Positions 9,031 to 64,000 of a stretch of 64,000 bases of DNA are shown here, in pieces (positions within the stretch are counted from its first letter, which is position 1; every line of letters begins with the position of its first letter). The notes under the pieces are model-generated. The model did no database searches. It saw only the letters and a program-made list of their open reading frames with translations, and was not told the DNA's origin. The translations under genes were made by a program, and so were the position numbers. Origin of the DNA: Heptranchias perlo (Eukaryota); contig NC_090344.1 of the NCBI RefSeq assembly GCF_035084215.1, positions 43,338,001 to 43,402,000 on the forward strand. The letters are read 5' to 3'.

Positions 9031-17422
<8,392 letters not shown>

Positions 17423-37270: not shown

Positions 37271-37384
37271 TTATTTCTTCCACTCCGCTTCCTCATTCCT
37301 GGCCTCTGACATCGGGAATTCCCACCTGTCCCTCTCAGCAGTGTAAAAATTTGTATTCGCAGCGTAGTCCTGTTGCAAAATCAC
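37271..37384 (-). CDS. SLC18A1: SLC18A1-like terminal coding exon
   Basis: tgacag|[40 protein letters not shown]; completes the KEEKM-VIL dileucine-like motif. Confidence 0.8.
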   Translation of the reverse strand: MILQQDYAANTNFYTAERDRWEFPMSEARNEEAEWKK

Positions 37385-40300
37385 CTGTCAGTAAAAGCAA
37401 AAGGATTAGCGTTTGACTCGAACACGGTATGCAATATTAGCGCACAAACACTGAACACATCATATGAAATTTACCTATCTGCTATTTTAGCAGAGGTGTT
37501 AAACCATTTAAAATAAACAGGTTAATGACTCCTTTAAAGAAGCAGACTAAGGAATTCCTTGAGAAGCGTTCATACATCAATATCTCACTCTAATTCCAAG
37601 ACTGCAGTTCAGTGGATTCTCTCCCTCTCAATTAGAACATAAGAAATAGGAGCAGGAGTAGTCCATTTGACCCCTCGAGCCTGCTCTGCCATTCAATAAG
37701 ATCATGGCTGATCTTCTATCTTAACTCCACTTTCCCGCCCTATCCCCATATCCCTTGATTCCCTTAGCATCCAAATATCCATCGATTTCAGTCTTGAACA
37801 TATTCAACGACTGAGCACCCACAGCCCTCTGGGGTAGAGGATTCCAAAGATTCACAACCCTCTAAGTGAAGAAATTTTTCCTCATCTCGGTCCTAAATGG
37901 CCGACCCCTCATCTTGAGACTATGACCTCTAGTTCTAGACTCTCCAGCCAGGGGAAACAGCATCTCAGAATCTACCTTGTCAAGCCCTCTAAGAATTTTA
38001 TATGTTTCAATGAGATCACCTGTTTTTCTTCTAAATTCCAGAGAATTATAGGCCCATTCTACTCAATCTCTCCTCACAGTACAACCCTTCTGTTCAAATC
38101 CCTCCATGGCCTTGCCCCTCCCTATCTCCGTAACCTCCACCTGCCCTACAATTCTCATCCTCATGTTCAAATCCCTCCATTGCCTCGCCCCCTCCCAATC
38201 TCTGTAACCTCCTCCATCCCTACAACCCGCTGAGATCTCTTCGTGCTTTTCCAATATTAGCCTTTCTGGCATCCCTGATGGCCGTGCCTTCAGCTGCCTT
38301 GGCCCTAAGCTCTAGAATTCCCTGCCTAAACCTCTCTGCCTCTCTCTCCACTTTTAAGGCGCTCCTTAAAAACTACCTCTTCAACCAAGCTCCAGATGGG
38401 GACTGACCTGAGCTCTCCACAGCTGTAACATAACTTCCACCCCTTTGTATTCCAGTCCTCTTGAGATAAAGAAGGACTTGTATTTGTACAGCACCTATCA
38501 CAACATTCCAAAGAGCTTTACAGCCAGTTAAATACTTTTGAATTGTAATCACGGCTGTAATGTAGGAAACACGGCAGCCAATTTGTGCACAGCAAGATCC
38601 CACAAATAGCAATGAGATAATGACCAGATAATCTGTTTTTTTAGTGATGTTGGTTGTGGGATAAATATCGGCCAGGACACGGGGTTCTTCTTCGAAATAG
38701 TCCCACTGGATCTTTTACATCCAACTGAGAGGTCCTCGGTTGAACTTCTCATCCGAAAGAGGGATGAGATGTTAAACCGAGGCCCCGTCTGCCCTTGAAT
38801 ATGCAGAGCCTGTCATCAGAAGGCAACCAAAACAAGACGTTCTATCATTTCTGCGGGAGGATGGGAGAAGTTGAGGTCAGTCCCCGTGTGAACACCAGCT
38901 GGGCTTTGACTGTCAAGACTGGTGCAACCTGCAGGCTGTACATTCACTCGAGGTGTGTTGTGCAGTTTGCTTCATTCCAAATGCCTTGAATTTTCTTTTC
39001 CTTCTTTCGAATCGCCCTGTCAGTATATTTGAGGCCTAAGGAACAGACACATCCTGTCCATCAGCTGCAGTGGTTTCATAGCTCACTGTAGTTAGAGCAG
39101 AATTGTGAATGGCTTTGGAGTTTCACTCACTCACTTGTTCTTCGCTCAACATTTGCTCACTTGCTCCTCGCTCACTTACTCCTCACTCATTCACCCTCTC
39201 CACACTAACTCATTTGTTCTCACTCATTTATTTGGTCCTCTCTCACTCAATCACTTCTTCACTCTCACCCTCCTCATTCAGCCGTGGCTCAGTGGTAGCT
39301 CTCTCGTTTCTGAGTCAGAAGGTGCTGGGTTCAAACCCCATTCCAGAGACTTGAGCACAAAATCCAGGCTGACACTCCAGTGCAGTGCTGAGGAAGTGCC
39401 GTCTATCAGATGAGATGATAAAGTGCCTTCTCAGGTGGGTGTAAAAGACCCCATGTCACCATTTCAAGAAGCGCATGGGAGTTCTCTCTGGTGCCCTGGT
39501 CAATATTTATCCCTCGACCAACATCGCTAAAAACCGAATGTCTAGTCATCTATCACGTTGCTGTTTGTGGGGCCTTGCTGTGTGCAAATTGGCTGCTGCG
39601 TTTCCAATATTACAGCAGTGACTGCACTTCAAAAAGTACTTTTTTGGTTGTAAAACATTTTGGGTCAGTCTGTCTGTCTGTCTGTCCTCACTCGCACTTA
39701 ACCTCCCTCCCTGTTCATGCTGAAGTAAATTGTCTTTATAAAATAACATCCGTTACCATTTTCTCTTCTTTGACAGGAGGATTTCTTAGGATGACACAGA
39801 GTGGAGCGTATGCCATGTTAATAGCACCAATGATGACCATTAGCCATTGGAACCCAATTGCTCTGACAATAGCTCCTCCGATTGAGGGCCCTGGATGGTA
39901 AGCAAAAATTATTAATCTTTAACATGTGACATCCACTGTTCTCAGATTAAATTAACCAGCGCAGCCTGTCTACAAAGGGCAGGAATCCCTCGATTTTCTT
40001 CGAGAACGTTAAAATAAAATAGTGGAAGTTCCTACAGTATTTGGATTTCCAGAAAGCCTTATGACAAGATCCCACAAGGAAGGCCGTTGGTTCAACTAAA
40101 ATCCATAGGATTCCATAGTATAATGTGGCATTTCATAAGAAAATTGAAAATGAAACAGGAATCCGAGAACTCGTGCGAGGTGTGATGTCAGCCTATGGAT
40201 CGAGGGAGACGCTGAGTGGAGTAATGCTGGGGTCGCTGCTTGGACTCTGGTGTTTCTACATGAATAACGAATGCAGAAATAAATTGAAAGCTTGATAAAT

Positions 40301-43300
40301 TTGCAAACAATACTGGGTACCTGGGCTTCTCCTCCCGCACTGGGAGTGCAGTAGGGACAGAGGATACAGTTAAGCGTTCCTTTCGGCCTGTTATAGAGAG
40401 TTGGGCAGGCAACCGTTTCTTGATGTTGGATGGTGGAATCGTGTGTGATTCCAAGACAACATCAGCAAGGTAATGAGTTGCACCGATGCTGGCCCTGCCT
40501 AGACGACACTTGCTGTCTTGGCTCACATACGAAGAATGAGTAAGGTACCCAGGAGTGTCAGGTGCCAGTGGAACTGACCCCCGGCAAGAGGCAATGCCTT
40601 CAGGGGAGGCAGGAGAAAACTGGGAAATAGAAGAAACCATAGAATATCATCACTGGATGGAAATGAGAAGCTGGGGGTTTGGCGCTGGGGAAATGGTTAA
40701 CACCGAGCAGCTGTGAGTTCGTTAAGTTTACAGCCCACCCCAGCACTATCATTGACCACTTTCAGAGAGAGAGGGAGAGGACTTGAATTTAAGCAAAAGC
40801 GCACCCAAGGAAACGCTGGCATCGACTCACCGATTGCAAATCCCATACAAAGCGCCACGTCAGCGATGGCGAAAACAGTTCCGTACACGGACACATGACG
40901 AATATCCACCAGGTAGCCCATTATGGGAATCATCGCTGAATCAATCATCCCTGGTCACATCAAAGGACACACTCAGAATTAAGGCTGCAACACACCCAGC
41001 AATATCTCCCTAATGTGGGATCAGATTGGAAGCAGCACCCTGTTCAGCTTGACAATAATGGAGAGCCCTTCACTGATATACACTCCCAGCCGTAAAATCA
41101 AACAGCTTTATGTACCCTCCCCGCCATGGGCTAGGTTCGATCTTTTCTCCAGGACTCTCTTTGTGGTGTCTTTGTTCAGGAGGGGGCCTGGCCCCTGGTT
41201 CAACCCTGTGCCTCTCATACTTATTGCTGGTTGATAACGTGAAACAGGCAGTGCTGAGATTCACTTTTGAATCAGTTCACTGAGCAGCTGACAACAAAAT
41301 AGGAGGTTTATTTTGGCTTTTAAAATTTTGAACATTGTTTAAAAAATCAATTCTCCCCTTCATATTCCACAAGCTGGACTCCAGCTGAAACTGTAGCAGG
41401 TCTCCAAGTTCATGAATGGGGTTTAGTAACAGGACCATTTCAAAACACTGACCTTTATTGGATCCCTTATTAAAGCTGTGTTGTGCCACAATCATTAGCA
41501 GGCAGCTCGAATCCCAGCCTCAGACTTAGGAGACTTGGCTCAAGGCCCAACCCCAATTGACACACACTTGGGTTCCCCAAAGATGAGATGTCAATCCTGG
41601 CTGAAGTGTCGGAGGAAGGTTCCTCACTGATGGGGATGAAGACTGTCATCGGGGCCCATGTCCTGGCTGCAGCTCCAAAAAAAAATAGACGTCCTCAGTG
41701 ACACCATGGCTGTTAAAGAAGGGCTCAGGCTGCCAATTCAGGAGGGCTGAGTGAGAGGACTTTGAATACAGACAGGACACATTGAAGGAAAATCCTTGCA
41801 GGATGTCAGAACAGAGAGCAATACTGTGGATGTTGGATTTAGGAGTACAGAAACAGAAGTAACTTTATCAGAAATACTGGACCCAGGGAGAGGAGAGGAG
41901 ATAGGAACAGCAGAGGAGACAGGAACGTGGGACTTGAACATGGAGTGGATTGTCTGTGCCACTGTGAGGGGTGCTGGAGGTTTCAGAGGACAGAAAAAGA
42001 TCAAATGACTTTATCACTGGTGGGTACGATTCCCATTGATTATACTCTGACCCGGCACAAGCTGCTGGTGTTTTTATTGAATGTGTCAATGTCCTCCTGT
42101 GGCATTGCTAAGTCAGAGGATAAAACAGGAGCGCGATATCATACGATGCACAATATTATTCTGTAGCCATGTGTAACTTGCTATGTCCCTTTCAGGCCAT
42201 AAAGTCGAGTTGCTGTAAACAGGACATGTGACGGTCAGTTAGAGGTTGTTCAGGAAGGAAGTTTGCAGATAGTGAGGTGCTTGTAAATTTTTGGCTCCCA
42301 GTCAACAGTAATCAGAAAGAAGTGACTTTTTGATTCTTTGAAGTATGAAGGACACAGAACTTCTGAATGGATAGCTAGCTAGCTGGCTAGATAGATGGCA
42401 GGGGGATGAAGGGTAACTGGCCCTGCCTCCTGTCTGATGCTGGTTTACAGGTGTAATCACATTTTTCTGCTACTGACCTATTGCGAGGCCTGCTCCAAAG
42501 CTTGGGACTATCAGTTCAAAAATGTTGGTTGCAAGAGGAACCTAAAGCACAAAAGGTATTTATATTAGAAACAAGAAAAACAAGCACTCAGTGGAGCTTA
42601 AAATTGTATAAAGTGTAAAGTGAAACATGCTTAAAATCAAATGCAGTGTCTCACACAGATGATACTGATCCCCAAAAGCACCATTCCGACCAGGGAGCAC
42701 AACCACCTGCAGATACAGAGAGAGCAAATGTTTAAACAAATGTACACACAGATGCTAACTGTCATGGTCGAGTATTCCTATCACTGAATCCGAGTTAACC
42801 TATACTTGCTTGGAGTAGAACCGAATGATTTCTATGAGCTGCACAAGACCATTGTCTGGAGTTTGTACCTCAGCCTTTTAAATCACTGGGGCTGTGGCAG
42901 AATGAAAGAATTGTTTAATTGTGCCTGAGCAATGATGAATATTTAGTGGCTGCCTGTATCCTATCCCGCACCAAGTCCCGCTCACCCATCTTCCCTGTGC
43001 TCGCTGACCTTCATTGGCTCCCGGTTCCCCAACGCTTCGAGCTGTTTGGTTTGGCGTGTAACCCAGTGGGTGTGAGAATCCCTACGTGGTCAGTTTTCAG
43101 TAAAATATTAAGATGCCTCCGTGGCAAAGAAGCAGAATGCAAAATGGTTAGAAAGGGTTAATTAGTTAGTAACTGAGATTGGTACAGGTGGCCTGGCCTC
43201 CTGCTGGGCCATATGTTTGCGTAGTCAGCAGGTTTGCATGGTCTTATCAATGTAGAATCTTTGATGTGATTCAAGGACTGGTCTGAATGTCTCCATGTTT

Positions 43301-46300
43301 ATGGCAGATCAATATAGGTAACGAGCTTAGCCAAAGTTGAAAGACATTCCAGGATGGGAGATAAGGAACAGAAGGAACAGGGAAGAACATTCCAAGTTGG
43401 AAGGTGAGGAAGTATCCCCTTTGATGTCTAACAGCAACATGGTCAGCACATGATTATCTATGATTGGCCGGAAATAATGTAACCTCGCATGGCAACCTGT
43501 GCCCGGCTTATGATTGGTGTTGACTCTTGTGTTAATGATGTTCCAACCCCTATCGATCTGTATAAAGGTATGAGTTTTTGTCTTTGTCTTTCTCTCCTTA
43601 TTCTGTTAGAATCATTCGGATTCTCTCAGGAATCTGAATTGAAGCTACAGACTAAGACCTGCTATTAAAGTTGTGTTGAACTTTAAAATGTATTCGACTT
43701 CAGTTTTTACTGAACCAGACTGAGGGGAAAGAATCCGGATCGTCAGGTGTGGGTCAGAATTAGAATGAAAGAAAGATCTTGCATCTCTATCGTGCCTTTT
43801 ACGACCTCAGGACGTCCCAAAGCACTTCACAACCAATGAAGTCCTTTTGAAGTGTAGTCATTGTTGTAATGAACCTGGCACCTTAAATACGGTGGGTGTT
43901 GATCCCATAGGACAGTTTATTGTTTCTCAAATACCACACTGTAAAGAATGACTGAGTTTCATCTCTGGCCCAGTCAGTGCACACGTCCCATATTGCTCCT
44001 ACCTGCCCATTTTGTTGGCAAGAACACCAAAGAGATTTGTGCCCATCATGTAGCTGATGGTGGATGGCAGGAAGGCCAAACCTACCAGAAGAGACAAAAT
44101 TGGGTTAATTCAGGTCAGAAAGCAAATGCAGAGCTTACTGGGGAGGCAGGGGGTGGAGGGAGGGAGTGGAGGAGATGGGGAGGAAGTTGACTGTGCCTTT
44201 ATCTCACATGTCACCAGACCTGCTGTTCGATAAAATCGTTTCAACTTGATCTCTGTGCAAACATACCCAGGTGCAGTTTAGGAGAACACATGGTCTTCAT
44301 CATCCAGATTGGCAGTGCCTGCTCCAGCATAGCGATGGCCATGTTTGAGAAGCACATGGTTCCTTGAAATAAACAAATACAGGCTCATTTATTAATTTCC
44401 ACATAGACTTATATTAATGCGTATTTGACAAATCAGTGTTGAAAGCCTGAACAAATGGGAGATTATTCCAGAGCATTTCAGATGAGAAATAAGCCAAACT
44501 GGTTCATTCACTTAGATCTTTCTCCATCTGTGTACTCCACAGGTCACACCATTATTGCAAGGTCGTGTGCAAGTGATTCAGCCCTTACTTACCTCACCAC
44601 TGAGCTAGTATTCACTCTCCGTACAGGGAGTCCCATTCAGCCCAGCAATTGTCAGCTGCTGAGGAGAATTGAGCTTCAACAAAATAAGGACTGGGATTTG
44701 GAACCTTATTGAAAGTTCAGCGCTTTACCATTAAAGGTATCAGACTACCCCTGTACAGTGGATTGGTGAATGGTTGCATCCAGCCTCAGATTGGCACACA
44801 CTCTTTGATCCAAATCTTTGAACAAAAATGACATACTCTTCCTTTGTATTCCTTTCTTACTTTAAAAAAAAAATCATTCTTGGGATGTGGGCGTCACTGG
44901 CAAGAACGGCATTTATTGCCTATTCCCAGTTGCCCCTGAGAATGTGGGCCGCCTTCTTGAATCACTGATAGCAGTTTGATACAACTGAGTGGCTTGCTGG
45001 ACCACCTCAAGGGGCAGTTAAGAGTCAATCACATTAGTGTGGGACTGGAATTATGTATAGACCAGACCGGGTAAGGACGGCAGGTTTCCTTCCCGAAAGG
45101 ACATTCGTGTACCAGTTGGGGTTTACAACAATCTGACAGCTTCATGGCCATTTGAACTCACTCTCTCTGGATTATCAGACCAGACCTCTGAATTACTATC
45201 CAATAACAACCATTACACCACCGTACCCATTATTTCATGGATTCTGATTGTGCCTCAGTCTCCGGAACATCCCTTGGAAACAAGCCTACAGAGCACAGGT
45301 ACAAGTAAACTGCCTTCTTTCCACAAGCTCCCTGTCATTCTTCCAGATTAACAGTCACACTTTATTGCCCAACAAAGGAAGCTATAGAGTATCTTAGAAA
45401 CCAGGCTTCCTGTATATTGAAAACCATCCCCAATAGATGGCAAAGTTAATGGGGGTAATTTTAACCCTCCCACAATGGGCGGGAGAGGGTCATGGGGGGT
45501 GGGGAATTGTTAAAAATATGAAAGCTGACCCTAACCCGCCATGAACTTTAACCAGGGCGGGCTGGGGGGCAACTCTGGAGAGATGGGTCCATCATTATAA
45601 AATGTTAACGAGGCTGCGTTCCTCAGATTTTGGGAGCCATTTGAATGTAATGACTGTGGGCCGAGTTTCTCAGGGCTCGGAAAACCCGCAACTAAAGGGA
45701 GGCAGAATCCAGCAGATAAATGCTTTCCCAGCACTGCTTGTAGGCCATGAGGAGCAGGAGTGCTTCCCCCCCGGCCCCTCAAGCCGACCCTCCCCCGCAA
45801 TCGGCCGATTTCCCCCCCCATCCCCACTATGCCCCAATCTTTGCTGATTGCCGGGGTCCGTCCCCAGTGCTCCCCGGCTGCAGCCTTCTACCGCAGGCTT
45901 TCCCGCCCGGCAGCCAGCCAGTCTCTCAATTTGGCCGGCTGCCGGGCGGGAAACAGAGTAAAAAAATATTATTGCGGTCCTGCCGAATTTAACGTTAAAT
46001 TCGGCAGGACCTCTGCCTGGCCGGCATTTCCAGGTTTCCGAGCCACAGACACGCGCCCCCGCTCCCTCCCCACCTCCCCGGAAATATCGGGGCCAAAGTT
46101 TCTCAAAAAACTGAACAAACTCTAAGATGATCTCAACTCTGCCTGCTACAATACACAGAGAACTGATCTGCTTACCGGCAGCAATCAGAATGTAGGGGTC
46201 TCTCAGCAGTGTTAGTAGCGACGTACCTTTCTGACTCTGTAACCATAGTAACAGAAATAGCAGTGAGGAGAGCTGCCATGTAAGCCCTCAGAGCATTGAA

Positions 46301-49300
46301 GAGATCCAGCAGTGGGGGCAGCTCGATTTCTGATAGAAGAGGCTAAGTGCTAATGTAGCAAATTGTTTATAGTGGAACATAAAGACGACTGGAGCATTAA
46401 CAGATGAAAGCATGTCCCAAAACTGAAGTAATGGGTTTCTTGTTAAAATCCTGAATATATTTTTCAGGTGTATTATAAATTCCTGATCCAGTGCTAAAAT
46501 GGAATTGGATGACATCTCACCTGTACTGCTCATATTATCTGTCTAATTCAGCATGTTGAACAGCTAGTTCTGTGAGTAGAACAGATGGAAAGACTGAGAT
46601 CAGTCTGCGAGTAGAACCCTGGTTGTAAATCCAGATTTTTAACCTTCACTGTCTGAATTGAAAGATACACCATTGAAGACTTTCTGCTCTTGTCTTCCTG
46701 CCATTTCCAATTCCTGTTCTGTCCCACTGCGGCCCTGCCCACTGGAATTCCCTCCCTAAACCACTCTGCCTCTCTCCCTCTCTCTCCTCCTTTAAGACGC
46801 TCCTGAAAACTTACCTCTGACCAAGCTTTTGGTCACCTGTCCTAATATCTCTTTATGTGGCTTGGTGTCAAATTTTGTCTGATAATGCTCCTGTGAAGTG
46901 CCTTCGGACATTTTACTGGTTTAAAGGCTCTTTATAAATGCAAGTTGTTGTTGTTGTGAAGGGCTCCATAGAAATATAAGTTACTGTTGGAGAAGAGAAA
47001 AGACTGGTTACTTACCTCTGCAACAGCCTTAGTGGGTTGAAGAATGCAGAGCTGGAGAACTAAGTAGAGACAGGAATTCAGTAATTCAATAATTAAAGCG
47101 AGTTGGTAGTTACAGTAAGTTATTAGGTAAAGCCCGTTATTTAAGCAAGTTACTAGTTAAAGTGAATTCTTTCAGTTGGGCTTCTCTTAAATTACAGACA
47201 TTCTCAGGTGTCATGTGCAGTGGCTCTATCTCTCCTGATTAATTTTCCCTCAATTTATTTCCTTGGATCCAAGACTGTGAAATGGAAATGGCCTGAGTGC
47301 AGAGTCTACAATCTGCCGATTCCTGGTTCAGTCAATGGACAGCAGCTGCCTGTCCATAGCCAGAGTCTCTTTCACGTGAGTTGTGCTCAGATTAACAGTC
47401 GTTCTTCTTAAAATGCACTGTGGTTACTAAAACAGGAGCAATTGCACAAAGCAAACAGCAGCTCACGCAGGGTGACCCTGTAAAAGGTTTAAAAGAAATA
47501 AATAGCTACATTCTGCAGTTCTTATTTCAGAATCTTTTCCTCCCTCCCATGCACTGTTTCCTAACAAAGGGGACAGGGAGATGATTTGCTCTCAGACCTC
47601 TGCGTCTAAAGATGCCCACATACTGGGCTGGCTCGTCTGCTGGTCTTTTCCTTCCCCAGTGGGAAAGGGGGCTGAATTCCGCTCTGGGGCCTTCCTAATT
47701 TCGTGGCTGAGGTAGAAACTCTATGAAACAATTAAGTACGGGCCGTAACTGTGAGTTTCTACCAGGGAATCTTCTGTGATAGTGACCAGTGTGGGAGCGG
47801 ATTGGAGAGAGGACCCTCTATCCACAGAGGTAAGACCCTCCGCATGTACCAGTCTACTCTGTAGGACTTCCTTTATTTGGTTTTGGAGATTTAGGTTAGA
47901 ACTGGCTAAACGATACACATGGAAAAGATGTCACTGCTGATGCAGGGAGAGGATCCAGTTCTCTTGGGTCAGGATAAATGTGGTGAGGGGAGCAACAAGA
48001 ATCAGATTTTAGCAAGGCTCTTCAGAATGACAATTTTGCCTGTCAACTGGTAAAATCGTATTTTGTTAACAAATGGCACACAATAAAACTAATTGAAGAG
48101 GGCTGCTTTGGAATGGCAGGCCGCAGACTTGCTGTGTGATTGCCCACATGGTCGTGGTCATTTCCAGAATCCTAGCTGGCACAACTGAGCAGAAGCACCT
48201 TTGATGGAAGGTGGAAAGATCTCAGACTGAGGTAGAAACTGGTTCAAGAACCGGGTTGACTCAGACTAGGTTGGAGATCAATTCCTGCTGTTTCCAGCAG
48301 TGAGGGCACTGTAGGGTGGAGGGGGCGGGAACGTACTATCTGCCTGATAATTATATCAAACTGCTCATTCATAGGAAATAGAACATTTAATTGGGAGAGC
48401 ATTTTGTCCATAAAATTTTCCAGTAAATCAGGGCTCCTTTATAATATAACAAAATTGTACCAACCTCCATTGAATAAGGACAAGGCTGCCAAAATCAGAA
48501 AGGGAGATGACTTTCCGACAAATTCATACATCACACTTCCAAAGGGCGCTCCAACTGCAAGCAATGAAATAATTGGAATGAATCCACGCCAGACACATAA
48601 AGTACCAGCTGTAAGTACCACCAGGTGGAGAAAAGATCATTCACTCCATCCCATTCCCGCTCTTGTGTTGCTCTGTCAGTGCTGCTGAGAATTGGCGCTT
48701 GGGAGGCGCATGAGAGCAATGCAGGTTTCTGGTCTCTTGGCTTATCCTCCCTGCTTCTGTTCTGCACCTCAACCTAGACAGCCTTGCTGAGATCAGAATC
48801 TCACCGTGTGGGGAAAACCCATGGCTGAAATGGTGCCTTTCTATTGAGCACCCTTAAAGAGGCGTTTAGCTCGCTGAAGCAGACACAATGGAAGCAGATG
48901 CTCAAATGTTTTGGTGCTTTTTGTTCCCACAAGTGTAGCAGCACACGGTTCAATGTAAGTGCAATGTACAAATTACTTACTGAGCACCCCCAATGCCACG
49001 CCTCCCAGCGCTATCCCCATGGCTTTGCCTCTTTCATTGTCATCTGTATAATTACTGGCTAACATTGCCAAACCTGCAGAGGGAAAAAATATTAGTAAAT
49101 ATTAACCCTTAAAGACAAACACTGAAACTCCATCTCCGACATTGCACCAGGCTGGTCTGTCTCTCTGTCCACCCACTTTACTGTTGTTTAGAGTTTCAGT
49201 GAACCTGTCACGTTTCAAAGCAGCTGATTATTTGGAACTCCTGACCAGTCTAGATTCAGGAGCCCAATGCTTCAGTGCTGGACTGGCCTGAGCTGTTTTT

Positions 49301-52300
49301 GGCTTCTGTTCATTATTTGACTGAGTTTATTAAAACTCTCTTAAATCCATTCCAGTTCACTCTTGTGGAAGCAGGCAGGAGTGAAGGTTATTATGACTGG
49401 AAGAAGGAAAACTGGCCAATCTAATCTCTAATCTCCATACAAGCTAAATTCCCCAACCCCATTCTGTTCAGCTCTTCTCACTGATCCTCCACTCTCTGGA
49501 CAACAGTCCTATTGGATTCCCTCCCATCATCCTTAAGATGCGTATGTCTGAACTTATGCCCTCCCGAAAGCTGTATCTAATTTCCTCTCTAATTGTTCTG
49601 TCTGTGGTGTGGTTGAGGGCTCATCCTTTAATTTGTTTTTTCTTTATCTTAGTTATTCCCCCTGACTCTGTTCTCAAAACCACTCTGTTCCATCTCAGTA
49701 ACATTTTCACTCATCATCGAACCCTATCCCCACTTTTGCTGACAATGCAATTCTACATTCATTAACTTCCTCCACAGCATGCCCTCAATGCTTGCAATCT
49801 ACAGTCTTCTTGAAGTACAATGGCTGAATCACTACATTTTAACGTCAGTTGGGCAATAAAACATTTCTTTCAATTCTTGAAAGGTACAGTTTCTTCAAAT
49901 CTCTTGTAAGCGTAACCAAAAGCTACCGCCTCTTTCCTTAGTTGGCTCCATCCTTCATCTATTGGCATTCTGGCTTCACGACATTCCCTGACCTCAAGTA
50001 GATCCCCTATTTCTAAATTTGTCTCCAAGAAGCTTGATTTTCCCTTTCATACCAAACAATTCTGTCCTTTTCAGAACTCATAACTCTCTGTTAAGCTCAC
50101 GATTTCAATACTGCTCCCCTGTCTGGGACACTCATCGAGCATCACATTCTTGGACAGATACAAACAATCTTGTCATCTGATAGGTGATTCTTCAGTCACC
50201 TCTTGCCTCGACTTCTCTCTTTCTCTCTCTCAATCACAACTTCATTGCTATGATAATGCCCAGTGCTCCTCTGAACTTCCCTCTCATGTTCCTTCTGCCC
50301 CAAATACAGTACCCTACAAGCTAATCTGCCTTCCTATCTCCCCTTTGTGTTAAGATCAAGGCTCATTATACAGTCTGCTACTCTATCCTTTCCCAAGATC
50401 TCAAAGTTCTTTTAAGTCCCTCAGTCTTTCCTTCTTCCTACAATCTCCAGCCTTTTAAAACCCAAGCTTGGTATCACCCAATCACTACTCTCTGATTACC
50501 TCAATTTCTCTTCTATCCTATTACTGGTGTCCTCCTCCACTGTGAACCTTGGCCCTTCACCTGGGTTTCTCAACACCTAAGGAAAAAATACCTGCTACCG
50601 AGGAAAACGATGAGCCAATTCCTTGAAGAGCGCGAGCAACAAATAGCCCGGGGTAGGTGGTCGAGAAAGCATACACTGTTGACAAGAAGAGAGGAAAATG
50701 AAGTGAAGTGAAGTCAACAGAACTTTGCTTGTGGGAAGAACATGAATGAGCTTTCCAAAAATGTGATGCATTGTACCACATCAAGGAAGGATACAGTTCA
50801 TTCTTTCAGTGAGGAGAACCTCACAAATCACGAGTGGGATGTATGTGTGGCATTCTTCTGTTTCTCTGCCCCCCCCCACCGCCCCCCCCGCCCCTGCTCA
50901 TGTTCTATTATGCCACTGTCCTCCAGTATATCTCCTTTATATCCCACTTGAACTCAGAAATATTTTGTACTGCAGTGTGATGACAAAATATTGTGATGAG
51001 AACTGACCCCTGGAGCTCTGCTCGTCACAGTTCTCCACTTGGAACTACTACTATTGACCACTGCCCAGTTTCTCCTATTATTCAGTCAGTTTATTAGCCA
51101 GTTTACAACATTCTGCTTTATTTCAAAATCTTGCATTTTGGTTCTTATCAAGTGCTTTCTGAAAGTGAGTTGGAGAACATGCACCACATTCCCATCACCC
51201 AGCAGTGTCCCGTGCATAATTTCTACCTTAAAATCGTGCGATTAAAACTACTCACTTAGTGTTGAGGCAAACAATATCACAAAACCAGTGAACATTGGAG
51301 TGTGATATCCAACCCTAAAAGAAAGAAAATACACTTTACACAAAGAGTGACGAGAGCTTCAGTATCCAGGAATATCCACATTGCTGTCTTAGTTGAAAGT
51401 CTTTACTGGAACAAAGTTTAAATATTATATCTTTAGTATGAAGGCAACGCCCTTTATACATTTCAACCACATCACTACTGATGAAGACTCCTGCTATCTT
51501 GACTGGGCAAATTGGTCAATTTGTTTATGAACAGAGGCCTTTTAAATTTCAGACCCTGTAAAGAAGACAGATCCAGTTGATTCAATTTCTAGAGATGAAC
51601 TCGTGTGATCGGTGCCAGTTTTAAAACAAAATAAAGTGATTTCCTGTCCTGGCTTTAGCTTTCCAGCTCACCCATTTGTCTGGTTTGAAGTTACATCAAG
51701 CTGCTCTCGTGCTGCCTCCACAGCTTGAGGGAGGAGCATGGACTTTCACTTTCCTTTAGCCTGGAATTAGTCCACAAAGGGTGCCATAAATTACAATCTT
51801 AAGCAAAGAGCCCAGGGCTTGCCTGCTGACAACCCCTATGCAGCAATTCCCAAAGCACAGGTACAACTTACCTGTACCAGGAATTCTCTGTTGTGGCAAT
51901 GAGCAGGAATTATATACCGGAATTCTCCATGAGGGAATGGTAGATTCCTTCTCGGGTCTCCCCCACCACAGGCACTGATCCCCAGCCAAGGGGCTGGCAG
52001 GGGGCACGCCCCAACCTTTGGCACTGCCTGGTTTGTTGTGGCTGGCGGGAGACGAGTGAGGGCATTGTGGGTGATTCAGCCATAGATTCTGTGCCACTTC
52101 AGGCCGTGACCTGTCTGTTGCGTGAGAAACTGAAAGCTCAAGCCGAATTTCAAGGGTCCATGAAATAGCACACCAAGCATGGCACAGTCCGCGCAGGTGC
52201 TCTGTGCAGCTTGATGCCCAGTACCCTTAAATTTCTATGCCTGAATTTACCCAGATTCAGTTACCTGCTGGTGTAAAGGGCTTCTGATTTACCTGTTAGT

Positions 52301-55300
52301 CAGTGGCCCCACAATTGGATTCACCAGGAGCTGCACAATGGCTTTCGAGGCAAATAACAAGCCAACTTGAACATTTTCCTCTGCAAGAAATGAATCATTC
52401 CAGCTGCAGTGGGACCCTCCAGTGGCCGGTGTCAAGCCGAGAATGGCAGCCTCGGTGGTGTTCCTCCATTCATCAGTCTCACTCTCAGCTCCTGCAGTGC
52501 TGTCCTCAATCGTAAGGTCCAAGTCACTGGAATAGGGGAAGCCAGGGGAAGGAGTGGGGAGCAGTGCTGGAGGCTGCTCTTGTGATGCTGAGGTATTCAT
52601 TTCTGCGTAATGTTTATCGTACAAGTAACTGGGGATGATGGGAACTGAAACAGAAAATAGATCATTATTATTGATCAGCGCTTAAATTCCCAATAGCTGT
52701 AGAATGAAAAGTTCCGGAGCATTTTTATTCTCTCCCGCTGGAGCCATTGTGGACTGGATCATAGTACATGGGAAAAGTAGTTCAGCTCTCTGATACAGAA
52801 GAATACAGCCTTAACCAAGGGCAATGGCTCTTTGTAACAACTGTAAGTTATCATTTGGAGGCACTTGCCGCTGGAGATATCTAAATGTATCATCTCTTTG
52901 CATTACTTAGAGATAAGATGGGGAAACAGCTCAACAACAGAAAGTGTTGTTCTGCCAACATGCTACCCTACTCAGTGGGAGGCTGTAGATTCCAACCATA
53001 ATTTCCCACATAATTTCTTCCTACATTCAAGTTGGTCGGGCAGACACCGAGCAAAGGCAAGGAATTTCCTTGGAGAAAAACTGCGGAGCACGTCAACCTG
53101 CTAAGGCTGGCTCGGAGGCCTGGGAGAAGACTGGGGGTAAAAAATAGCTAACGAAAATAGAGGAGGGGGAAGAAGAGCTGCTGTCAACTTTCTTGCTGCC
53201 CCTGCTGTTCCTTATGGTATGAGGAGCTGGATCATCTCATACTGTTCTCACCAGCTCAACAGACCAACTGGTGCAGTTGCCAGATTGTAAAATTGATTCA
53301 AAAATTGTAGATGGAAATCAACAGCACATCTGAGTGAGGGTAATGTGGTGATGTTTGAGGAATAATGGAACTGGTTCTTTCTTTGTAAAGGGGTTAGCAC
53401 TTGTCTGAGAAGCCGTGATGTTCCCTACTTACGGAGAATTTGCTTTTCCCAGTACTGCAGGAATGAAAGGGAACAGGTTGTAATGATAGTTGTTGCTGAG
53501 CTTCAAAAAGACACAAGCATCTATTACTTTGCTGAAGTCGTCAGTACAAATTGATTCCACATTAGTTGGACAGTTTACATGGTGCGTGAAAACAGGCAGA
53601 CGATGAAAAATACAGCACATTAAAGACTTTGGCCCCGATATTTACGGGGTGGGGGGAACGGAGGAAACTCGGCAAGGGCGGGGACGTGGAGGTCCTGCCC
53701 AATTTAACGGCAGAACCCGATGATAACTCTTCTGTCCCCCGCCCGGGCTGGCCGGCCTCCAGGCGGGATAACTAACTGCAGGAGGCTGCAGCCGAGGACC
53801 CTTGGAGACGGACCCAGCAATTGGGAGGAGAGCAAGCTGCAGATCAGGGTTTGAAGGGGGGGTGTCGGCAGTGATCATGGGTTGCAGATCGGGGCATGAG
53901 AGGGTGGGGGGGGAGTCTGGCAGGGGGAGAGCTGGAGGTTTGCTTGAGAGGCTGGGGGGAGCACTCCTGCTCCTCCTGGCCCACAGCGAGTGCGAAATAA
54001 AGCACTTACCTTCTTGAGCTGGCAGCTCCCGTCTCCATTTCGCTGCTGGGTTTCCCGAGCCTTGGGAAACCCAGCCGGCAGCAGTTAAATTTAAATCAGG
54101 CTCCCAACTGCCTGATTTAAATATGTTAATGAAGTGTCCCAAGATGGGACAAGTTACACAGCACGCTACCCACTGTGGTAAAAATGGCAGCAGACACTTA
54201 CGCGTCAGGTTGGGGGTTATGCTTCACATTTTTTAGGGTTTAACCTCCTCCCCAACCTTCTCCCGCCCGGCGTGGGGATTTAACATCGTGGACTGTGTGT
54301 CCCTAATACAAAGTGACTGAATAATATAGCAACTGTGATTTCTACCACAGAAATCTAACCAACAAGGCACGATGGTGTGCAAGCTGATTGGGTTGTCCAG
54401 TGTGAGAACCTCAGTTCCTTTAGTGTGCAAGGATGTTGGTCCCCTCAGTAGGTGAGAACCTCGTCCCTCGGTGTGTACGAGGCTTGGGCTCCTCAATATG
54501 TGAGCACCTCCAGCTCCTCAGTGTGTGACTTCAGCCCATTGGTATGTGTGAGTCTCGACACCCCCCCTGCAAGTCTCAACCCCCCCGCCGTGTGTGAGTC
54601 TCGACCACCCCCCCCCGTGTGTGATTCACGACCCCCCCCGAGTGTGAGTCTCAACCCCCCCCCCCCGTGTGTGAGTCTCGACCCTCCCGTGTGTGAGTCT
54701 CGACCCCCCCGTGTGTGAGTCCCGACCCCCCAACCGTGTGTGAGTCTAGCCGCCCCCCCCGTGTGTGAGTCTCGACGCCCCCCCCGCCACAGTGTGTGAG
54801 TCTCGATGTCCCCCACAGTGTGTGAGTCTTGACCCCTCTGTGAGTTTGAGTCTCGACCCCCCCCCGAGTATGTGAGTATTGACCCCCCCGAGTGTGTGAG
54901 TATTGACCCCCCGAGTGTGTGAGTATCGACCTCCCCCAGTGTGTGAGTATCGACCCCCCCAGTGTGTGAGTATCGACCCCCCCAGTGTGTGAGTATTGAC
55001 CCCCCCGAGTGTGTGAGTATCGACCTCCCCCAGTGTGTGAGTATTGACCCCCCCAGTGTGTGAGTATTGACCCCCCTGAGTGTGTGAGTATCGACTCCCC
55101 CAGTGTGTGAGTATCGACCCCCCCAGTGTGTGAGTATCGACCCCCCCAGTGTGTGAGTATCGACCCCCCCAGTGTGTGAGTATCGACCCCCCCAGTGTGT
55201 GAGTATTGACCCCCCCAGTGTGTGAGTATTGACCCCCCTGAGTGTGTGAGTATCGACTCCCCCAGTGTGTGAGTATTGACCCCCCCAGTGTGTGAGTATC

Positions 55301-58300
55301 GACCCCCCCAGTGTGTGAGTATTGACCCCCCCGAGTGTGTGAGTATCGACCCCCCCCCCCGAGTGTGAGTATCGACCCCCACCGAGTGTGTGAGAATCGA
55401 CCACCCCAGTGTGTGAGTATCGACCCCCCCAGTGTGTGAGTATTGACCCCCCCGAGTGTGTGAGTATCGACCCCCCCCCCCCCGAGTGTGAGTATCGACC
55501 CCCACCGAGTGTGTGAGAATCGACCACCCCAGTGTGTGAGTATCGACCCCCCCAGTGTGTGAGTATCGACCCCCCCAGTGTGTGAGTATCGACCCCCCCA
55601 GTGTGTGAGTATCGACCCCCCCAGTGTGTGAGTATCGACCCCCCCAGTGTGTGAGTATTGACCCCCCCGAGTGTGTGAGTATCGACCCCCCCCCCCCCCC
55701 CGAGTGTGTGAGTATCGACCCCCACCGAGTGTGTGAGAATCGACCACCCCAGTGTGTGAGTATCGACCCCCACTGTCTGTGAGTCCCTACCCCCCGTTTG
55801 TGAGTCCCGACTCCTCCCGTGTGTGAATCCTGAACCCACCCGTGTGTGAGTCCCGAGCCCCCCCCCAAGTTTGTGAGTCCCGACTCCCCCCGTGTGTGAG
55901 TCTCGACCCCCCCCCCCCCAGCATGTGAGTCTCGACCCCCTCAGCATGTGAGTCTCGACCCCCCCCAGTGTGTGAGCCTCGACCCCTCCCCAGTGTGTGA
56001 GCCTCGACCCCCCCGCAATGTGAGCCTCGACACCCCCCCCCAGTGTGTGAGCCTCGACCCCCCGCAGTGTGTGAGCCTCGACCCCCCCCCCGCAATGTGA
56101 GCCTCGACACCCCCCCCAGTGTGTGAGCCTCGACGCCCCCCCTCCCCAGTGCGTGAGTCTCGCCCCCTCTGCGAGTGAGGCGCCCGACCCCTCTGCGAGT
56201 GAGGCGCCCGACCCCTCTGCGAGTGAGGCGCTCGACCCCTCTGCGAGTGAGGCGCTCGACCCCTCTGCGAGTGAGGCACTCGACCCCTCTGCGAGTGAGG
56301 CGCTCGACCCCCCAGCGAGTGAGGCGCTCGACCCCCCAGCGAGTGAGGCGCTCGACCCCTCTGCGAGTGAGGCGCTCGCTCCCTCTGCGAGTGAGGCGCC
56401 CGACCCCTCTGCGAGTGAGGCGCCCGACCCCTCTGCGAGTGAGGCGCCCGACCCCTCTGCGAGTGAGGCGCCCGACCCCTCTGCGAGTGAGGCGCCAGAC
56501 CCCTCTGCGAGTGAGGCGCCCGACCCCTCTGCGAGTGAGGCGCCCGACCCCTCTGCGAGTGAGGCGCCCGACCCCTCTGCGAGTGAGGCGCTCGACCCCC
56601 CAGCGAGTGAGGCGCTCGACCCCTCTGCGAGTGAGGCGCCCGACCCCTCAGCGAGTGAGGCGCTCGAACCCTCTGCGAGTGAGGCGCCCGGCCCCTCTGC
56701 GAGTGAGGCGCTCGACCCCCCAGCGAGTGAGGCGCTCGACCCCCCCAGCGAGTGAGGCGCTCGACCCCTCTGCGAGTGAGGCGCTCGACCCCCCAGCGAG
56801 TGAGGCGCTCGACCCCCCAGCGAGTGAGGCACTCGACCCCTCTGCGAGTGAGGCGCCCGACCCCCCAGCGAGTGAGGCGCTCGACCCCCCAGCGAGTGAG
56901 GCGCTCGACCCCTCTGCGAGTGAGGCGCCCGACCCCCCAGCGAGTGAGGCGCTCGACCCCCCAGCGAGTGAGGCGCTCGACCCCCCAGCGAGTGAGGCGC
57001 CCGACCCCTCTGCGAGTGAGGCGCCCGACCCCCCAGCGAGTGAGGCGCCCGACCCCCCAGCGAGTGAGGCGCTCGACCCCTCTGCGAGTGAGGCGCTCGA
57101 CCCCCCAGCGAGTGAGGCGCTCGACCCCCCAGCGAGTGAGGCGCTCGACCCCTCTGCGAGTGAGGCGCTCGACCCCCCAGCGAGTGAGGCGCTCGACCCC
57201 TCTGCGAGTGAGGCGCTCGACCCCTCTGCGAGTGAGGCGCCCGACCCCTCTGCGAGTGAGGCGCCCGACCCCCCAGCGAGTGAGGCGCTCGACCCCTCTG
57301 CGAGTGAGGCGCTCGACCCCTCTGCGAGTGAGGCGCTCGACCCCCCAGCGAGTGAGGCGCTCGACCCCTCTGCGAGTGAGGCGCCCGACCCCTCTGCGAG
57401 TGAGGCGCCCGACCCCTCTGCGAGTGAGGCGCCCGACCCCTCTGCGAGTGAGGCGCCCGACCCCTCTGCGAGTGAGGCGCCCGACCCCTCTGCGAGTGAG
57501 GCGCCCGACCCCTCTGCGAGTGAGGCGCCCGACCCCTCTGTGAGTGAGGCGCTCGACCCCCCAGCGAGTGAGGCGCTCGACCCCTCTGCGAGTGAGGCGC
57601 TCGACCCCTCTGCGAGTGAGGCGCCCGACCCCTCTGCGAGTGAGGCGCCCGACCCCTCTGCGAGTGAGGCGCCCGACCCCTCTGCGAGTGAGGCGCCCGA
57701 CCCCCCAGCGAGTGAGGCGCTCGACCCCTCTGCGAGTGAGGCGCTCGACCCCTCTGCGAGTGAGGCGCCCGACCCCTCTGCGAGTGAGGCGCCCGACCCC
57801 TCTGCGAGTGAGGCGCCCGACCCCTCTGCGAGTGAGGCGCCCGACCCCTCTGCGAGTGAGGCGCCCGACCCCTCTGCGAGTGAGGCGCCCGACCCCTCTG
57901 CGAGTGAGGCGCCCGACCCCTCTGCGAGTGAGGCGCCCTACCCCTCTGCGAGTGAGGCGCCCGACCCCTCAGCGAGTGAGGCGCCCGACCCCTCAGCGAG
58001 TGAGGCGCCCGACCCCTCTGCGAGTGAGGCGCTCGACCCCCCAGCGAGTGAGGCGCCCGACCCCTCTGCGAGTGAGGCGCTCGCCCCCCAGCGAGTGAGG
58101 CGCTCGACCCCTCTGCGAGTGAGGCGCTCGACCCCTCAGTGTTTGGGAAGTTTATGCCCACCAGTGTCTGAGCCTCAGCCCTTCGATCTTTCTCCCCTGT
58201 TCTACCTGGAGGACAGAATGTTATGTTTTATTTGACTCTCTCCAGACAATATTAGACTTGAACTTACCAATGACTGTGAGCAGGGTATAGTCCAGAAAGA

Positions 58301-58391
58301 GTGCAATATAAACAATAACGAGCACCATTGTCCTGGACTGCCTCGCCTTCCTCAGCCATGGCCGTATTCTCCACTCCTTTATCCATGTCAT
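37271..58391 (-). CDS. SLC18A1: Vesicular monoamine transporter, SLC18A1/VMAT1-like (divergent), complete spliced CDS, 521 aa
   Basis: complement(join(37271-37384,39757-39890,40831-40950,42478-42541,42655-42706,44003-44081,44267-44362,46176-46236,47016-47059,48465-48554,48981-49073,50592-50675,51256-51314,52293-52644,58268-58391)) = 1566 nt with no stops, all GT-AG, 15 coding exons as in VMAT1/2. VMAT1-like diagnostics: [24 protein letters not shown] in TM12 and EFP in the tail. One-to-one orthology versus paralogy is not established. Confidence 0.85.
39757..39890 (-). CDS. SLC18A1: SLC18A1-like coding exon 14
   Basis: [44 protein letters not shown]. Confidence 0.95.
40831..40950 (-). CDS. 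SLC18A1: SLC18A1-like coding exon 13
   Basis: [39 protein letters not shown]. Confidence 0.95.
42478..42541 (-). CDS. SLC18A1: SLC18A1-like coding exon 12
   Basis: [21 protein letters not shown]. Confidence 0.93.
42655..42706 (-). CDS. SLC18A1: SLC18A1-like coding exon 11
   Basis: [17 protein letters not shown]. Confidence 0.93.
43073..43745 (+). mobile_element. Solo LTR (673 bp), retrovirus-like, antisense in an SLC18A intron
   Basis: Ends TGAG...GTCA with 4-bp TSD GGTG (43069-43072 and 43746-43749). Two ATTGG boxes, TATAAA at 43561-43566 and ATTAAA at 43664-43669. Confidence 0.8.
44003..44081 (-). CDS. SLC18A1: SLC18A1-like coding exon 10
   Basis: [25 protein letters not shown]. Confidence 0.95.
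44267..44362 (-). CDS. SLC18A1: SLC18A1-like coding exon 9
   Basis: [31 protein letters not shown]. Confidence 0.95.
44865..45230 (-). mobile_element. Non-LTR retroelement fragment sharing the 3' end of the 60510-63375 LINE family
   Basis: CATTCTTGGGATGTGGGCGTCACTGGCAAG..GCATTTATTGCC is the near reverse complement of 63320-63365. Confidence 0.65.
45451..46094. mobile_element. GC-rich non-autonomous DNA-transposon-like element (related inverted copy at about 53631-54285)
   Basis: Both copies share the GGCCCCGATATTT terminus and the internal GAGCACTCCTGCTCCTCCTGGCCCACA and GGTCCTGCC..AATTTAACG blocks. Harbinger-type assignment is inference. Confidence 0.6.
46176..46236 (-). CDS. SLC18A1: SLC18A1-like coding exon 8
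   Basis: [20 protein letters not shown]. Confidence 0.95.
47016..47059 (-). CDS. SLC18A1: SLC18A1-like coding exon 7
   Basis: [14 protein letters not shown]|gtaagt. Confidence 0.92.
48465..48554 (-). CDS. SLC18A1: SLC18A1-like coding exon 6
   Basis: [29 protein letters not shown]. Confidence 0.95.
48981..49073 (-). CDS. SLC18A1: SLC18A1-like coding exon 5
   Basis: [30 protein letters not shown]. Confidence 0.95.
50592..50675 (-). CDS. SLC18A1: SLC18A1-like coding exon 4
   Basis: [27 protein letters not shown]. Confidence 0.95.
51256..51314 (-). CDS. SLC18A1: SLC18A1-like coding exon 3
   Basis: [19 protein letters not shown]. Confidence 0.93.
52293..52644 (-). CDS. SLC18A1: SLC18A1-like coding exon 2
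   Basis: PIIPSYLY..luminal loop..[29 protein letters not shown]. Confidence 0.95.
54520..58140. repeat. 3.6-kb compound GC-rich minisatellite in the first coding intron of SLC18A
   Basis: ~21-22-bp GTGTGTGAGT(C/A)TCGACCCCCCA units grade into ~24-bp GCGAGTGAGGCGC(C/T)CGACCCC(TCT/CCA) units from about 56150. Confidence 0.97.
58268..58391 (-). CDS. SLC18A1: SLC18A1-like coding exon 1
   Basis: [41 protein letters not shown]|gtaagt. Confidence 0.88.
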
Positions 58392-63799: not shown

Positions 63800-64000
63800 A
63801 TCCCGTTCACCCATCACCCCTATACTCGGTGACCTACATTGGCTCCGGTCCGGGACTGCCTCGATTTTGAACTTCTTATCCTTGATTTCAAATCCCTACA
63901 TGGCCTCGCCCCACCCTATCTCTGTAACTTCCTCCAGCCCGACAACCCTCCCAGATGTCTGCGCTCCTCCAATTCTGACCTCTTGCGCATCCCCAATTTT
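63800..64000 (+). mobile_element. L2 3' fragment
   Basis: Same family as 3215-3968. Other fragments at about 18260-18595, 32915-33235, 38090-38390 and 46720-46957. Confidence 0.8.

Follow-up and report, generated by a model that had tools for sequence, protein, structure and literature searches.

A probable VMAT1 gene with altered pocket and gate residues in the shark Heptranchias perlo and in other elasmobranchs

The window analysed here, a stretch of 64,000 nucleotides from the shark Heptranchias perlo (contig NC_090344.1, positions 43,338,001 to 43,402,000), carries on its minus strand a gene of the SLC18A family of vesicular transporters, very likely the single shark orthologue of SLC18A1 (VMAT1). 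The gene runs from an ATG at 58391 to a TAA stop ending at 37271 (Table 1), and its 15 exons, separated by introns of which 14/14 are GT..AG, join into an open frame of 1566 nt encoding 521 amino acids plus the stop. The product is letter for letter XP_067857639.1, 'chromaffin granule amine transporter-like [Heptranchias perlo]', and the gene is already known and annotated in RefSeq; exon joining and this identity confirm the open frame over 15 canonical exons given in a preliminary description of the window. What sets the protein apart is a series of pocket and gate substitutions, which are not peculiar to H. perlo but mark elasmobranch VMAT1 as a clade.

The protein has the 12-helix fold of the major facilitator superfamily, with a large luminal loop after transmembrane helix 1 (TM1). 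PF07690 matches it with an E value of 1.5e-47, and a model predicted from a 43-sequence alignment (predicted local distance difference test, pLDDT, 68.5; predicted template modelling score, pTM, 0.69) shows a VMAT fold that Foldseek aligns to VMAT1 and VMAT2 structures with TM-scores of 0.95-0.97 over the target in the top 11 matches. The top matches of an ESM Atlas search are VMAT clusters only. Residues are numbered here by alignment to human VMAT2 (chain 8ucj), relative to which the shark protein is offset by +1 in TM1 and by +4 from residue ~107; human VMAT1 (chain 8tgg) was aligned for comparison. The proton-coupling and amine-binding set D33, K138, R189, E312, D399, D426, N305 and Y341 is complete, and W318 and F334 are likewise kept. 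The changes are N34Y, M35T, L228V, D262N, G307A, P313Q, W328L/Q329H, S338T, N388S, Y422F and F429L, together with A337S and M403I, so that the cavity (N34, L228, S338, N388), a helix break (P313) and the gate (Y422/M403) all depart from the canonical VMAT pocket. Every retained and substituted residue named in the preliminary description, and its numbering, agrees with the two alignments. Judged by sequence, the transport engine and both amine anchors would be intact, and the ring-hydroxyl contacts, the TM7 helix break and the cytosolic gate would be altered.

Table 1. Coding exons of the H. perlo gene and residues of interest (shark numbering, human VMAT2 equivalents in brackets)
Feature	Positions in window	Strand	Residues and remarks
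Exon 1: start codon, N-terminus, TM1	58268..58391	-	D34 (D33, 58292-58290), Y35 (N34Y, 58289-58287), T36 (M35T)
Exon 2: luminal loop and TM2	52293..52644	-	K142 (K138)
Exon 3	51256..51314	-	splice-joined frame
Exon 4: TM4	50592..50675	-	R193 (R189)
Exon 5: TM5	48981..49073	-	R221 (R217), V232 (L228V)
Exon 6: TM6	48465..48554	-	N266 (D262N; varies among sharks)
Exon 7	47016..47059	-	splice-joined frame
Exon 8	46176..46236	-	splice-joined frame
Exon 9: TM7	44267..44362	-	N309, E316 (E312), Q317 (P313Q), W322, L332/H333 (W328L/Q329H)
Exon 10: TM8	44003..44081	-	F338, S341/T342 (A337S/S338T), Y345
Exon 11	42655..42706	-	splice-joined frame
Exon 12	42478..42541	-	S392 (N388; G in 18/22 species)
Exon 13	40831..40950	-	D403 (D399), I407 (M403I), Y422 (Y418), F426 (Y422F), D430 (D426), L433 (F429L), F437 (F as in VMAT1)
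Exon 14: TM12 and beginning of C-terminal tail	39757..39890	-	splice-joined frame
Exon 15: tail and TAA stop	37271..37384	-	splice-joined frame

Elasmobranch states were counted with one protein per species over 22 sharks and rays, and over 21 at positions 399, 403, 418, 422, 426 and 429, since one isoform is without the exon that carries them. No species keeps N34 (Y in 18, F in 2, H and R in one each), L228 (V in 12, I in 9, M in one) or N388 (G in 18, M in 2, S and F in one each), and M403 (replaced by I or V) is kept in none of 21. P313Q and W328L are each fixed (22/22), F429L is found in 21/21 and Y422F in 19/21, the remaining two keeping Y, and position 338 is T in 17 species, A in 4 and S in one. 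The charged core and the luminal gate are stable: D33, K138, R189, N305, W318, F334 and Y341 are kept in 22/22 species and D399, Y418 and D426 in the 21 with letters there, and glutamate at position 312 is retained in 18 species and replaced by aspartate in 4. A top-match set of 129 bony-vertebrate VMAT1 proteins, rich in birds, keeps N34, L228, D262, S338 and Y422 without exception, N388 in 128, W328 in 123 (4 gaps) and P313 in 118 (3 gaps), and elasmobranch VMAT2 is canonical at all 28 tabulated sites in 12/12 proteins. Three of the substitutions listed for H. perlo in the preliminary description are not distinctive: D262N, at a position that varies among the elasmobranchs (N in 11 species, D in 10, S in one), and the commonplace variants G307A (also in 27/59 VMAT2 and 7/129 bony VMAT1) and F429L (24/129 bony VMAT1). 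The differences from known VMAT1 are N34Y, M35T, L228V, P313Q, W328L, Q329H, A337S, S338T, N388S/G, M403I/V and Y422F. The same description had foreseen that such residues might be commonplace in shark and fish orthologues; they are common in those of sharks, but N34, L228, S338, N388 and Y422 are unchanged in those of bony fishes.

The pocket and the gates likely changed a single time, in the ancestor that sharks and rays share. Orthologues of chimaeras, lampreys and hagfishes are not named among the matches listed in three protein searches (120 of 253, 120 of 2326 and 120 of 350). Inside the clade, the manta and devil rays of the genus Mobula (P0013, P0009, P0343, P0344) have H or R rather than Y at position 34, and M. 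birostris has several VMAT1 models on one contig, a hint of local duplication or further relaxation. At least two of the clade signatures also occur in 3 of 115 short fragments, namely a shark fragment (P0304), one frog protein and one goby protein. Partial VMAT1-like proteins of the frog Hymenochirus and the goby Eucyclogobius (P0232, P0244) are also divergent around TM7-TM8, and pocket-altered VMAT1 copies may have arisen elsewhere than in elasmobranchs.

Orthology to SLC18A1 rests on the number of SLC18A genes and on the neighbour. A genome search with shark exon 13 gave 3 matches from 3/3 scored candidates and one with canonical bowfin VMAT1 gave 19 (28/28 candidates scored), all in the same three loci: the gene studied here (contig C23, that of the window), VMAT2 (C24) and VAChT (C39); these counts are lower bounds, and the assembly may be incomplete. 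The C24 gene, whose exons are 85-100% identical to those of a shark VMAT2, has the canonical LDNML motif and lies tail to tail with a C1-domain exon that we take to be PDZD8; the VAChT gene is intronless and its product 37% identical to the studied protein. No second VMAT or SLC18A1 copy was found by motif scan and tblastn within 100 kb on either side of the window, nor genome-wide. Exons of ATP6V1B2 type lie head-to-head with the gene, on the opposite strand ~15 kb beyond its start codon, an orientation shared with the human locus. A 33-residue exon of this neighbour is identical in 33/33 positions to the mammalian brain isoform (B2) of the V-ATPase B subunit, and the other two B copies in the genome are 88% and 79% identical in the tested exon. 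These two, which bring the B-subunit genes to three, lie at C24:16253267-16253365 and C1:4067551-4067649; the one on C24 is ~200 kb upstream of VMAT2 and head-to-head with it, mirroring the VMAT1-ATP6V1B2 pair, which suggests a retained genome-duplication copy. Because another B copy thus also lies near VMAT2, linkage alone does not carry the weight; the match of the neighbour to B2 does. In cattle, SLC18A1 and ATP6V1B2 fall within one 1-Mb window (PMC6097312). An LZTS-family (Fez1) match on the same contig lies 6.5 Mb away and was not used as synteny evidence.

The trees agree with this assignment without proving it. In a FastTree analysis of 204 sequences (211 of 222 proteins, those of at least 430 amino acids, plus the shark's own VAChT, less 8 removed because of gaps), the 15 elasmobranch proteins group together in a single clade (support 1.0) that is sister to the 129 bony VMAT1 (0.90); in an IQ-TREE analysis of 31 chosen rows the clade has support of 100/100 and its grouping with bony VMAT1 88/99 (not starred). 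Approximately unbiased (AU) tests leave other placements standing: neither a clade outside VMAT1 and VMAT2 (p=0.175) nor one with VMAT2 (p=0.295) is rejected. The top sequence match of the shark protein in the PDB is VMAT1 (8TGG-8TGN, E 6e-199); core identity to lemur and bowfin VMAT1 is 72-75%, and L204, A236, F433 and N460 are common to shark and bony VMAT1. With VMAT2 (8UCJ, 8THR, 8JSW and others) it shares the fold, the charged core and two residues, V232 and I308, but a canonical VMAT2 of the shark itself lies on a different contig, and core identity between the two is 72%. The gene is best filed as SLC18A1: it is the only VMAT1-like locus found, stands beside an ATP6V1B2-type gene and is distinct from SLC18A2 and SLC18A3, and the canonical pocket is the only feature tested for that it lacks.

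The altered positions can be set against what is known of VMAT2. In human VMAT2 the amine of serotonin is held by D399, N305 and Y341 and its hydroxyl by N34, E312 and Y433; N34A abolishes uptake, and histamine binds reversed, through E312 and with a bond from the Y433 hydroxyl, and has no need of the enlarged upper pocket required by the serotonin indole (PMC12721464). A second study calls the role of N34 unclear, finding uptake below half with N34A, near zero with N34T, normal with N34Q and about half with F429A; in its account Y422 belongs to the cytosolic gate, and N388 and S338 sit on a water wire (PMC10959523). The catechol hydroxyls of dopamine bind E312 and S338 (PMC11405867, PMC11695631), the inner cytosolic gate consists of M403 and Y422 (PMC11405867), and Y422C favours the reserpine-bound state (PMC10770148). 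In the rat protein, P314G and P314L raise both the maximal velocity (Vmax) and the Michaelis constant (Km) according to a review (PMC5940252), and inhibition by tetrabenazine is about ninefold weaker with P314A (PMC9684503).

Transferred by homology, this background predicts a 12-helix transporter that would exchange protons for amines across secretory-vesicle membranes, with the amine anchored by D399/N305/Y341 or by E312, with a rocker switch driven by protonation of D33, E312, D399 and D426, and with W318/F334/F135 and R217/Y418/M221/Y422/M403 as its gates. An aromatic residue at position 34 would narrow the upper pocket and remove or replace the contact to the serotonin ring hydroxyl; the hydroxyl of Y34 may substitute for the one absent at position 433, and space may be gained through the smaller side chains at 228, 388 and 429. 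By analogy with rat P314G/L, P313Q is likely to increase both Km and Vmax, and Y422F and M403I/V likely loosen the cytosolic gate. The geometry of the pocket is deduced here from sequence.

On balance we lean, with little better than even confidence, towards a working proton/amine antiporter whose affinity, turnover or order of preference among amines has been altered. The preliminary description had likewise proposed a proton-coupled transporter with shifted specificity, a proposal that stays plausible since the changes fall on VMAT2 substrate-contact and gate residues, but that applies to the clade rather than to one duplicate. The gene also appears not to be decaying, because family-conserved sites are far oftener invariant in the elasmobranch clade than other sites (153/245 vs 35/143, p=4e-13), and the decaying copy that had been considered as an alternative finds no place at the protein level.

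Several points, the AU tests among them, weigh against an altered antiporter. No transport assay on this protein was found in the open-access literature, which was covered by titles and abstract openings. Not every change at these positions need matter: N34Q is neutral (PMC10959523), position-422 mutants still carry serotonin (PMC5940252), and S338T retains a hydroxyl. The clade is fast, moreover, with a crown depth of 0.173 against 0.033 for shark VMAT2 (~5x faster), it is still fast inside its crown, and position 34 varies further within it (F, H, R), a pattern expected under relaxed constraint. Across the clade 24/245 family-conserved sites are lost, and their enrichment in the pocket is borderline (7/38 paper-named sites vs 17/207 others, p=0.057, falling to 0.026 and 0.024 when the cut-off is made stricter) and inflated, the list of paper-named sites being biased because the papers were searched for the very residues that had changed. 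Because frog VMAT1 is comparably fast (stem 0.182 vs 0.173; 20 conserved sites lost, among them 3 of the 39 paper-named ones), fast evolution of VMAT1 is not unique to elasmobranchs; elsewhere the losses number 8 in teleosts, 8 in squamates and 1 in mammals.

Much of this would also be expected if VMAT2 covered most monoamine storage in sharks and an ordinary VMAT1 drifted under relaxed constraint, its pocket changes compensating one another and its function staying essentially the same, an account that we hold to be possible though clearly less probable. The core identity of H. perlo to 11 other species, 0.76-0.86 in VMAT1 vs 0.94-0.98 in VMAT2, speaks for it, as do the pace of frog VMAT1, the borderline enrichment and the occurrence of F429L, G307A and P313A/T in ordinary VMATs. 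It fits poorly, however, with N34, L228, S338 and Y422 staying unchanged in 129 bony VMAT1, frogs included, over a subtree of 4.5 substitutions per site, and with several new states fixed in 22/22 elasmobranch species. Frogs share F429L and G307A with the sharks but keep N34, L228, P313, S338, N388 and Y422, and their losses at paper-named sites are all conservative (L37F, S200T, I395L), which N34Y is not.

It is unlikely that VMAT1 was re-purposed at the base of sharks and rays for a different amine cargo, the ring-hydroxyl contacts for serotonin and catecholamines being given up, and marginally less likely still that such a carrier, with both amine anchors kept, mainly loads histamine, trace amines (phenylethylamine, tryptamine) or a small alkylamine and leaves catecholamines and serotonin to VMAT2 alone. 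The binding of histamine in the same pocket, through E312 and without the enlarged upper part, would favour this (PMC12721464), and position 34, which borders the upper opening, holds a bulky residue in 22/22 species. Any candidate substrate is nevertheless purely hypothetical, and position 433 is F, without the hydroxyl that bonds histamine in VMAT2. VMAT1 is, besides, the poorer histamine carrier. Nor do the 24 changes converge on VAChT, a protein of the same family and fold (1/24 identical in the H. perlo protein). That the gene is instead a separate SLC18A paralogue, whether an elasmobranch duplicate, as the preliminary description had suggested, or an old genome-duplication copy kept after loss of the true SLC18A1, is highly improbable, for although the AU tests reject no alternative, the B paralogue upstream of VMAT2 shows that the linkage predates the split, and an incomplete assembly could hide a copy, a single VMAT1-like locus was found with both the shark exon and bowfin VMAT1, its neighbour is of B2 type, no canonical SLC18A1 was found with it in the genome (the 100 kb beyond position 64000, where an LDNML-type copy had been sought, hold the ATP6V1B2-type gene and no VMAT exon), and no canonical elasmobranch VMAT1 is among the matches listed in the three protein searches.

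No description of shark VMAT1 was found in the literature covered, and the main text of a catshark transcriptome paper does not mention it, though the supplement may hold tissue data (PMC11979771). It is thus apparently undescribed that an entire vertebrate lineage has exchanged N34 for an aromatic residue and also departs from the sampled bony VMAT1 and VMAT2 at several further positions that are invariant in them. Natural variants that tolerate the loss of N34 offer a direct test of ring-hydroxyl recognition and of gating coupling in VMATs, and they raise the question of which transporter fills the chromaffin and gut endocrine granules of sharks. Normal uptake would make the clade a lesson in compensation, and a different cargo would open a new branch of vesicular amine signalling; re-purposing, if true, would mean that a vertebrate VMAT had changed its specificity in nature, with VMAT2 left as the only classical monoamine store.

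Other features of the window are of a more local kind. Tandem repeats of 23 and 24 bp (~65 and ~82 copies) make up a 3.6-kb block at 54580-58137 that occupies most of intron 1. Three runs from the same sample, guessed to be RNA, gave no sense exon-exon joint among the best-supported rows, which is informative neither way, and exon 2 as query found no RNA dataset among the matches listed. In two of the presumed RNA runs, contigs match the window exactly at 39772-39897 (X2) and 39772-39822 (X3), and both leave the genome at 39772. On the plus strand, 39772-39897 overlaps coding exon 14; a pyrimidine tract leads there to an AG whose last letter is 39776, a GT donor follows at 39898, and the segment looks like a spliced antisense exon, as judged from match positions. 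Five extra matching letters fit a candidate plus-strand donor at 26099 (26099/26100), and no other such site lies between 8800 and 39770; from the lengths left unmatched, the upstream exon would start near 25970, in a GC-rich region upstream of a TTI2-like gene. The downstream neighbours at ~17000-17420 (+) and ~21300-24450 (-) are this TTI2-like gene (PF10521, E 5e-5, below the cut-off) and an acidic last exon without a Pfam match, which we take to be that of MAK16. Further downstream lie a 551-amino-acid single-exon Mab-21_C gene, ITPRIP-like, at C23:43291415-43293067 (-), and at C23:43247077-43247694 (+) a frame that resembles SNRNP200.

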